A stretch of 3,308 nt of DNA from Escherichia coli (GTDB lineage: Bacteria > Pseudomonadota > Gammaproteobacteria > Enterobacterales > Enterobacteriaceae). Under the pieces are notes generated by a model. That model was not told the DNA's origin, ran no database searches, and saw only the letters and a program-made list of their open reading frames with translations. Below, one piece after another: positions 2,968 to 3,231 of the stretch. Where the stretch lies: the NCBI RefSeq assembly GCF_003334765.1, contig NZ_QOWT01000070.1; one strand, given 5' to 3'. Numbering within the stretch: the first letter of the stretch is position 1; each line of letters begins with the position of its first letter. A program made the position numbers and the translations under genes.

Positions 2968-2974
2968 TCGGCAG

Positions 2975-2999
2975 CTCCCCCAAAGTTAAGGTGGGGGAG
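2975..2999 (+). terminator. GC-rich stem-loop directly after the nhaR stop (possible terminator or RNA-stability hairpin)
   Basis: CTCCCCC (2975-2981) pairs with GGGGGAG (2993-2999) around an 11-nt loop, starting 8 nt after the nhaR stop codon. No clear U-tract follows (ATAGATTAGTTG), so terminator function is uncertain. Confidence 0.3.
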
Positions 3000-3231
3000 A
3001 TAGATTAGTTGTACATTACCACGATTTTGACTCGGCTCATTATTTGCCCGCTTGAGACATTGTTTCCATATGTACGCGGGCGAATAAATAGAGGAATCTG
3101 ATTACTTCCTTCATGGGGATGCTGAAAAGAGTAGTAATTGCTTTTACCATACTGGATTTCATTCGTACCATCATTGGAGAGTTGAAAGCCTATTTGACCC
3201 GCACCGTCCTCACTGTTTTCTAACTCATTTT

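Follow-up and report, generated by a model that had tools for sequence, protein, structure and literature searches.

The stretch of Escherichia coli DNA analyzed here, called the window throughout and 3,308 nucleotides in full length, carries in order hokC/mokC, nhaA, nhaR, a spacer, and the terminal repeat of an IS1 element (Table 1). The nhaR stop codon (TAA, 2965 to 2967) and the first base of the IS1 terminal repeat (GGTAATGACTCC..., from 3232) leave a spacer of 264 bp, as an earlier note on this sequence had stated. We use the MG1655 start of nhaR (2062); PGAP takes the ATG at 2068. At the far end, the IS1 terminal inverted repeat GGTAATGACTCCAACTTATTGAT... is present in the window, the insB' stop codon lies on the minus strand at 3247 to 3249, and transposase transcription runs toward nhaR. 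The full element in WCHEC050613, a genome identical to the window, is 768 bp long, has an annotated programmed frameshift, and differs from IS1A at 3 positions. Two of the 3 differences between MG1655 and WCHEC050613 are also found in the unrelated IS1 copy of strain J6; these may reflect exchange between IS1 copies, and the IS1 comparison is uninformative on ancestry.

Table 1. Features of the 3,308-nucleotide window (positions in the window)
Feature	Position	Strand	Basis
hokC/mokC	upstream part of window	-	window gene order (hokC/mokC, nhaA, nhaR, spacer, IS1 terminal repeat)
nhaA	836..2002		window gene list
nhaR CDS	2062..2967	+	ORF list; MG1655 start (b0020 18715..19620, 906 nt); PGAP in identical genomes
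Hairpin, convergent stops of nhaR and adhesin gene	2964..3008	.	RNA fold
"Spacer"	2968..3231	.	264 bp = 37 bp intergenic + 227-nt gene remnant; Sakai L004 2290..2553, 100% identical, collinear
Tip-adhesin 3' remnant (probable), Yeh-like cluster	3005..3231	-	75 codons + stop 3005..3007; translation, PGAP
36-codon ORF (most likely spurious)	3113..3223	+	mechanical ORF list; antisense to adhesin remnant
MG1655-absent segment	3143..3231	.	89 bp, ~30 adhesin codons; alignment, contiguous in Sakai and at 3,402 IS1-free sites
IS1 (IS1A-type) right end, IRR	3232..3308	-	77/77 identical to MG1655 IS1A from 19796; cut at window edge

RNA folding placed a hairpin between the convergent stop codons of nhaR and the minus-strand gene remnant (-18.4 kcal/mol; z = -3.84 versus shuffles). 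Its inner GC stem, CUCCCCCA/UGGGGGAG, pairs 2975 to 2982 with 2992 to 2999, and the outer stem takes in both stop codons. The hairpin has no T-run and is therefore not a canonical intrinsic terminator; a terminator scan of 2900 to 3308 found none. Elsewhere in the window, the Rfam family sok (RF01794) matched 248 to 400 on the minus strand (153 nt, 118 bits), and the 59-nt sokC RNA of MG1655 corresponds to the plus strand at about 299 to 357. The Rfam family seems to represent the strand of the hok/mok leader, not the antisense RNA.

Nature of the nhaR-IS1 spacer

Most of the spacer is not intergenic at all: only its first 37 bp are convergent intergenic DNA, and the remainder is a 75-codon gene stump. 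Over its whole length it is 100% identical to and collinear with the corresponding DNA of O157:H7 Sakai, where the order past the spacer is ECs_0019 (adhesin pseudogene), ECs_0022 (usher), ECs_0023 (chaperone), ECs_0024 (subunit), espX1, and rpsT. Beyond IS1, the rpsT-side DNA resumes at Sakai L004 8971, and Sakai L004 2290..8970 is continuous. Compared to Sakai, the window allele therefore has IS1 in place of 6,417 bp, and MG1655 has it in place of 6,506 bp; the replaced segment comprises the rest of the adhesin gene, the usher, the chaperone, the major subunit, and espX1. At the same locus and without a mismatch, the stump corresponds to the 3'-terminal part of the last gene in the Yeh-like fimbrial cluster (ECs_0019 to ECs_0024 in Sakai); the window retains only 75 codons of that cluster and nothing of its usher, chaperone, or major subunit.

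Wurpel et al. (2013; Table S2) list Z0022, ECs0022, EC042_0022, and ECB_00021 as gamma4 "Yeh-like," with MG1655 marked absent, and place the Yeh-like usher in the gamma4 clade next to YehB (PMC3559732). The cluster occupies the interval between nhaR and rpsT in the majority of E. coli, and this position was fixed in the genomes that we compared (042, Sakai, and REL606). The operon partners of the adhesin gene in Sakai encode an usher and a periplasmic chaperone, and the arrangement in 042 agrees. Because the usher defines the type, the lack of similarity between the adhesin and YehA (BLASTP of the 319-aa protein against K-12 YehA; E = 1.8) does not exclude membership in the Yeh-like group. A full-text search combining nhaR, rpsT, and fimbrial returned no paper, and locus tags of the ECs_0019 type are not used in the 2020 paper on Sakai fimbriae.

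The stump is a pseudogene, lacking both a start codon and the gene body upstream. It encodes conserved C-terminal strands of the predicted pilin domain (...NELENSEDGAGQIGFQLS...YGNNVSSGQIMSRVKIVVMYN, then the stop codon). Its reading frame contains no listed ORF of at least 25 codons, and an in-frame stop lies just upstream, within IS1. In genomes identical to the window, the PGAP annotation across the spacer is a pseudogene on the minus strand, named "fimbrial family protein, missing N-terminus"; its size is 228 nt in the long allele versus 139 nt in the short allele of MG1655 type described below.

An intact copy of the adhesin gene, encoding 319 aa, is found in REL606 (L005 4659..5618) and in J6. 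Neither this protein nor the 75-aa stump matched any NCBIfam or Pfam model. A single-sequence phmmer search of PDB with the adhesin gave chance hexokinase matches only, and a word-indexed homology search returned only near-identical E. coli proteins. Exhaustive HMMER searching of 1.84 billion sequences recovered a small adhesin family of 43 representatives, the remote members of which surfaced by HMMER alone. The relatives are labeled P0011 to P0052; about a dozen members are full length, with 23 to 43% identity. The best-conserved block of the family is its C terminus (LKNELE..GAGxVGF.LS...YGN.V..G.V.SKVKVVV.YN), the same portion that is kept in the window. The Pfam model Fimbrial (PF00419) matched 5 of 15 family members (E <= 1e-3), the E. 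coli protein on its own having no match, and the family profile matched FimA (E = 2e-4) and the pilin domain of FimH over positions ~175 to 315.

The AF2 model of the intact adhesin (pLDDT 83.8) showed a two-domain fold, with an N-terminal all-beta domain, putatively receptor binding, and a C-terminal, Ig-like pilin domain. Its top Foldseek matches were FimH (6e-10), FocH, CfaE, PapG, CupB6, and LpfD, on which the pilin domain superposed at a TM of 0.6 to 0.7. Since the E. coli protein matches no Pfam or NCBIfam model, the fimbrial assignment rests on family profiles, fold, and gene context; together, these indicate that the intact gene probably encoded a two-domain tip adhesin of the FimH class. 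Like FimH, FocH, PapG, LpfD, CfaE, and CupB6, the predicted protein has two domains and is encoded by the last gene after the usher. However, sequence identity to these adhesins is only 9 to 19%, and what the window holds is a dead fragment.

Two further observations concern the intact gene. In many genomes PGAP names intact copies "hypothetical protein" and fragments "fimbrial family protein." The family is also very small despite a widespread cluster (3,402 of 5,426 genomes are uninterrupted at the site probed below). As for the remainder of the cluster, both REL606 (L005 5631..6962) and J6 (L008 6802..8133) combine the intact adhesin gene with a truncated usher gene (1,332 nt, N terminus missing) and have lost the chaperone and major subunit genes, a route of decay that is common to the two and different from that of the window allele. 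Annotation gives espX1 as incomplete (N terminus missing) in REL606 and as frameshifted in J6.

Length and distribution of the two junction alleles

The earlier note tentatively put the gap between nhaR and IS1 in MG1655 at about 175 bp and proposed, on that basis, that roughly 90 bp of extra sequence is present in the window. The value of 175 bp was exact: in NC_000913.3, the last base of nhaR is 19620 and IS1A occupies 19796 to 20563. Pairwise alignment put the difference at 89 bp, in a single gap in MG1655 that adjoins IS1, whereas the nhaR 3' end, the initial 175 bp of the spacer, and the 77 nt of IS1 were identical. Because a T is shared, placement of the gap is ambiguous by 1 nt (window 3143..3231 or 3142..3230). 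The alignment to the reference was thus gapped rather than gap-free, and the length difference survives; the other reading that the note had offered, that this is simply the reference sequence, does not, since the window is neither K-12 nor B. Apart from the gap, the window differs from MG1655 by two substitutions (G768 versus A and T1440 versus C), with the first ~52 nt unaligned. The IS1A locus of MG1655 (nhaR-IS1A-rpsT; b0020 to b0023) therefore has the same element in the same orientation, with the same rpsT-side junction and the same first 175 bp of spacer, and it likewise lacks the Yeh-like cluster and espX1. It differs in having 89 bp less of the stump, in the SNPs at 768 and 1440, and in an oppositely oriented IS186A.

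We counted the junctions among 5,426 complete E. coli genomes with probes of 27 + 27 nt, for which a 28-nt megablast seed can be obtained only across the junction itself. The long junction was found in about 120 genomes and the short, MG1655-type junction in about 426, mostly laboratory derivatives of K-12. The distal junction, on the rpsT side, was found in 531 genomes, close to the total of about 546 for the two proximal types; thus, no third class is evident. With a probe on the intact gene, 3,402 of the 5,426 genomes read uninterrupted through the junction site. REL606 has no IS1 at the nhaR-side position. At least 45 natural isolates with complete genomes, of human, pig, poultry, cattle, seawater, and sewage origin, matched the full 3,308-nt window at 100% in a single piece. 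We therefore regard an assembly or sequencing artifact, or an engineered construct, as having practically no chance of explaining the long allele: this explanation is refuted by these independent full-window matches and by the roughly 120 carriers of the junction.

The short allele also occurs in the wild, in 720632 (human stool, Pakistan) and PEC389 (pig, Korea). Over a 3,064-nt core compared in three long-allele and two short-allele genomes (the latter MG1655 and 720632), long and short haplotypes were 99.93% identical to each other, whereas outgroups were 98.1 to 98.8% identical to the window. Each haplotype has its own derived state in this core, G768 in the long and C1440 in the short, with outgroups carrying A768 and T1440. 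Given these distinct derived SNPs and the high mutual identity relative to outgroups, long and short are sister haplotypes, and the window haplotype is the phylogroup-A-like sister of the K-12 type. On this sequence comparison, the recent common ancestor of both alleles must already have carried this IS1 and a stump of at least 264 bp.

Site 1440, which falls in nhaA codon 202, is nonsynonymous (GTA, Val, in the window and outgroups; GCA, Ala, in MG1655 and wild strain 720632), and C1440 was linked with the 89-bp loss in the genomes examined. At the other end of the window, positions 1 to 78 lie inside a copy of IS186/IS421 at the dnaJ-mokC site, oriented oppositely to IS186A of MG1655 and to the copy in REL606; positions 1 to 90 match the REL606 left end in reverse (compared: L001 1..732, L005 386..1730, and L007 1908..3020). 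WCHEC050613, J6, 720632, and PEC389 have the IS186 transposase on the minus strand, and E. coli 042 has no IS at the dnaJ-mokC site. In the two wild short-allele isolates, IS186 is thus oriented as in the window and opposite to MG1655. Either orientation thus occurs at this one hotspot, and IS186 orientation does not track the IS1 allele.

Origin of the length difference

The 89 bp are ancestral and were lost in the K-12-type lineage rather than inserted in the window, because they are fully collinear with the Sakai gene at 100% identity and uninterrupted in 3,402 genomes. The earlier note's proposal of additional sequence in the window thus stood, refined as to the direction of the change. 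Under an insertion reading, the window would hold an 89-bp duplication, mobile fragment, or piece of foreign DNA relative to an ancestral spacer of 175 bp. This would account for the bare length difference; however, the 89 bp are in frame with the Sakai adhesin gene, occur in genomes lacking IS1 at the site, and code for the family's conserved pilin motif, GAGxVGF. Flanking direct repeats, which the note had suggested looking for, were absent. We give an insertion next to no probability, and consider it refuted by the Sakai collinearity together with the uninterrupted genomes.

The interpretation that we favor, with a probability of roughly 90%, is that the spacer consists of the hairpin and the adhesin stump, left behind by IS1 and by outward deletions of the fimbrial cluster, with K-12 having lost 89 bp more. 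Sequence identity and collinearity, the common distal junction, the absence of a target duplication, and the direction of change are established directly. MG1655 and long-allele strains (e.g., 300709) have the same rpsT-side junction, CATCACC/TACCTCAATGTG. IS1 is retained intact, and one deletion endpoint falls exactly at its terminus in both alleles. Neither allele has an 8- to 9-bp target-site duplication (flanks ...CTCATTTT and TACCTCAAT...). IS1 transposes replicatively and generates duplications of 8 to 9 bp (PMC12428005), and their lack is what would be expected of a deletion derivative. A common distal junction, an endpoint at the IS1 terminus, and no duplication are hallmarks of IS-mediated adjacent deletion.

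Such deletions begin exactly at the IS terminus and have a variable far endpoint, as documented for IS1/Tn9 (PMC9330008). The likeness of the present locus to these events lies in the IS left intact in place, the unchanged distal junction, the missing duplication, and nested variable endpoints (89 bp, 47 bp, and 6.4 kb). As in those cases, the missing DNA is contiguous in undeleted relatives, here Sakai. Adjacent deletion by intramolecular transposition is also classic for IS26 and IS102.

In the proposed series of events, IS1 would have landed between espX1 and rpsT in the ancestor of a phylogroup-A sublineage, at a presumed progenitor junction of ...TTTAATACCTCAAT/GGTAATGAC with the cluster intact. 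DNA would then have been lost outward from the IRR end of IS1 toward nhaR, to the extent of 6,417 bp in the window lineage and 6,506 bp in the K-12 lineage, probably through adjacent deletion by IS1 transposase-mediated intramolecular transposition. The short allele may have arisen from the long one by a second step of 89 bp, or both may have been cut independently from a longer progenitor. None of the 5,426 complete genomes held the progenitor, with IS1 flanked by the TACCTCAAT duplication and the cluster intact (best match, J6); the order of events is therefore inferred.

J6 itself is ruled out as the progenitor. Its IS1 (L008 10031..10798) is an independent simple insertion in the same orientation, 3 bp from the rpsT-side junction of K-12 and the window, with a perfect 9-bp duplication (CTCAATGTG) and the neighboring genes retained. 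This insertion suggests that the espX1-rpsT intergenic site is a hotspot for IS1. In E. coli 042, IS1 lies within the same adhesin gene (L003 5010..5777), where it replaces 47 bp (GGTGTTTTC...CTCAGTG in REL606) without a duplication; this is a second small IS1-adjacent deletion in the adhesin gene. As natural controls, the J6 and 042 insertions lend support to adjacent deletion.

The insertions in J6 and 042 also bear on a different route to the same structure, in which a second IS1 in the same orientation entered the adhesin gene (at 3231/3232 in one lineage and at 3142/3143 in the other) and RecA-dependent homologous recombination between the copies removed the DNA between them. The adhesin gene has been struck by IS1 repeatedly, as in 042, and the rpsT-side site twice independently (K-12 type and J6), making two-copy intermediates plausible, and the product would likewise lack matching target duplications. 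However, this route requires that a second insertion and then recombination happened independently in each lineage. None of the genomes showed IS1 copies on both sides, and the distal count does not exceed the proximal sum. Nor can recombination account for the 47-bp loss beside a single IS1 in 042, where IS1-adjacent microdeletions do occur. The products of the two routes are identical, such that sequence alone cannot separate them, and transposase dependence at this locus is an inference. We consider recombination between IS1 copies possible but unlikely, and adjacent deletion remains our preferred account.

Function of the 89 bp and meaning of the locus

A small plus-strand ORF had been proposed to overlap the extra sequence, and the 36-codon ORF of the mechanical list indeed shares positions with the 89 bp. 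This ORF, antisense to a dead gene, is most likely spurious: PGAP did not annotate it in genomes identical to the window. The MG1655-type deletion truncates the ORF, and to our knowledge this truncation has no known consequence. A promoter scan of 2900 to 3308 found one promoter-like site, at chance level, and Rfam gave no match in the spacer at E <= 1.

In all likelihood, the 89 bp carry no function in themselves. Retention for a function, whether as the 36-codon ORF, as a small or antisense RNA, or as flanking DNA that modulates IS1A, appears highly improbable to us. The ORF does exist mechanically. Also, K-12 has two IS1 copies competent for transposition, IS1A being one of them, and breaking the nhaR-side flank of IS1A with a 1.2-kb cassette lowered its transposition ~3-fold (PMC12428005). 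Against a function stand the lack of an Rfam match or a terminator, promoter-like sites at chance level, and an ORF left uncalled by PGAP; moreover, the short allele is viable and present in more genomes of the collection, wild isolates included.

Since disruption of the nhaR-side flank lowers transposition, the two alleles might differ in IS1A activity, although we think it very unlikely that a flank of 264 versus 175 bp at the IRR end changes that activity. If it did, loss of the 89 bp might have altered genome-wide IS1 mobility in the K-12 lineage, and the two alleles would amount to a natural experiment on the control of transpososome assembly by flanking DNA.

The length difference is an ordinary strain polymorphism, already annotated, that consists of nested IS1-adjacent deletions removing a fimbrial cluster. 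It is of little consequence and involves no new kind of element or mechanism. For annotators, the nhaR-IS1A "intergenic region" of K-12 and related strains represents what is left of the gene for a probable fimbrial tip adhesin, 89 bp shorter in K-12 than in its sister wild lineage. The junction is usable as a small lineage marker that distinguishes the long allele, the short allele, and the intact cluster, and the pair of alleles could serve as ready-made material for studying effects of flanking DNA on IS1A activity. As a natural case, the locus clearly illustrates both nested IS1-adjacent deletions and repeated IS1 strikes at the same sites.
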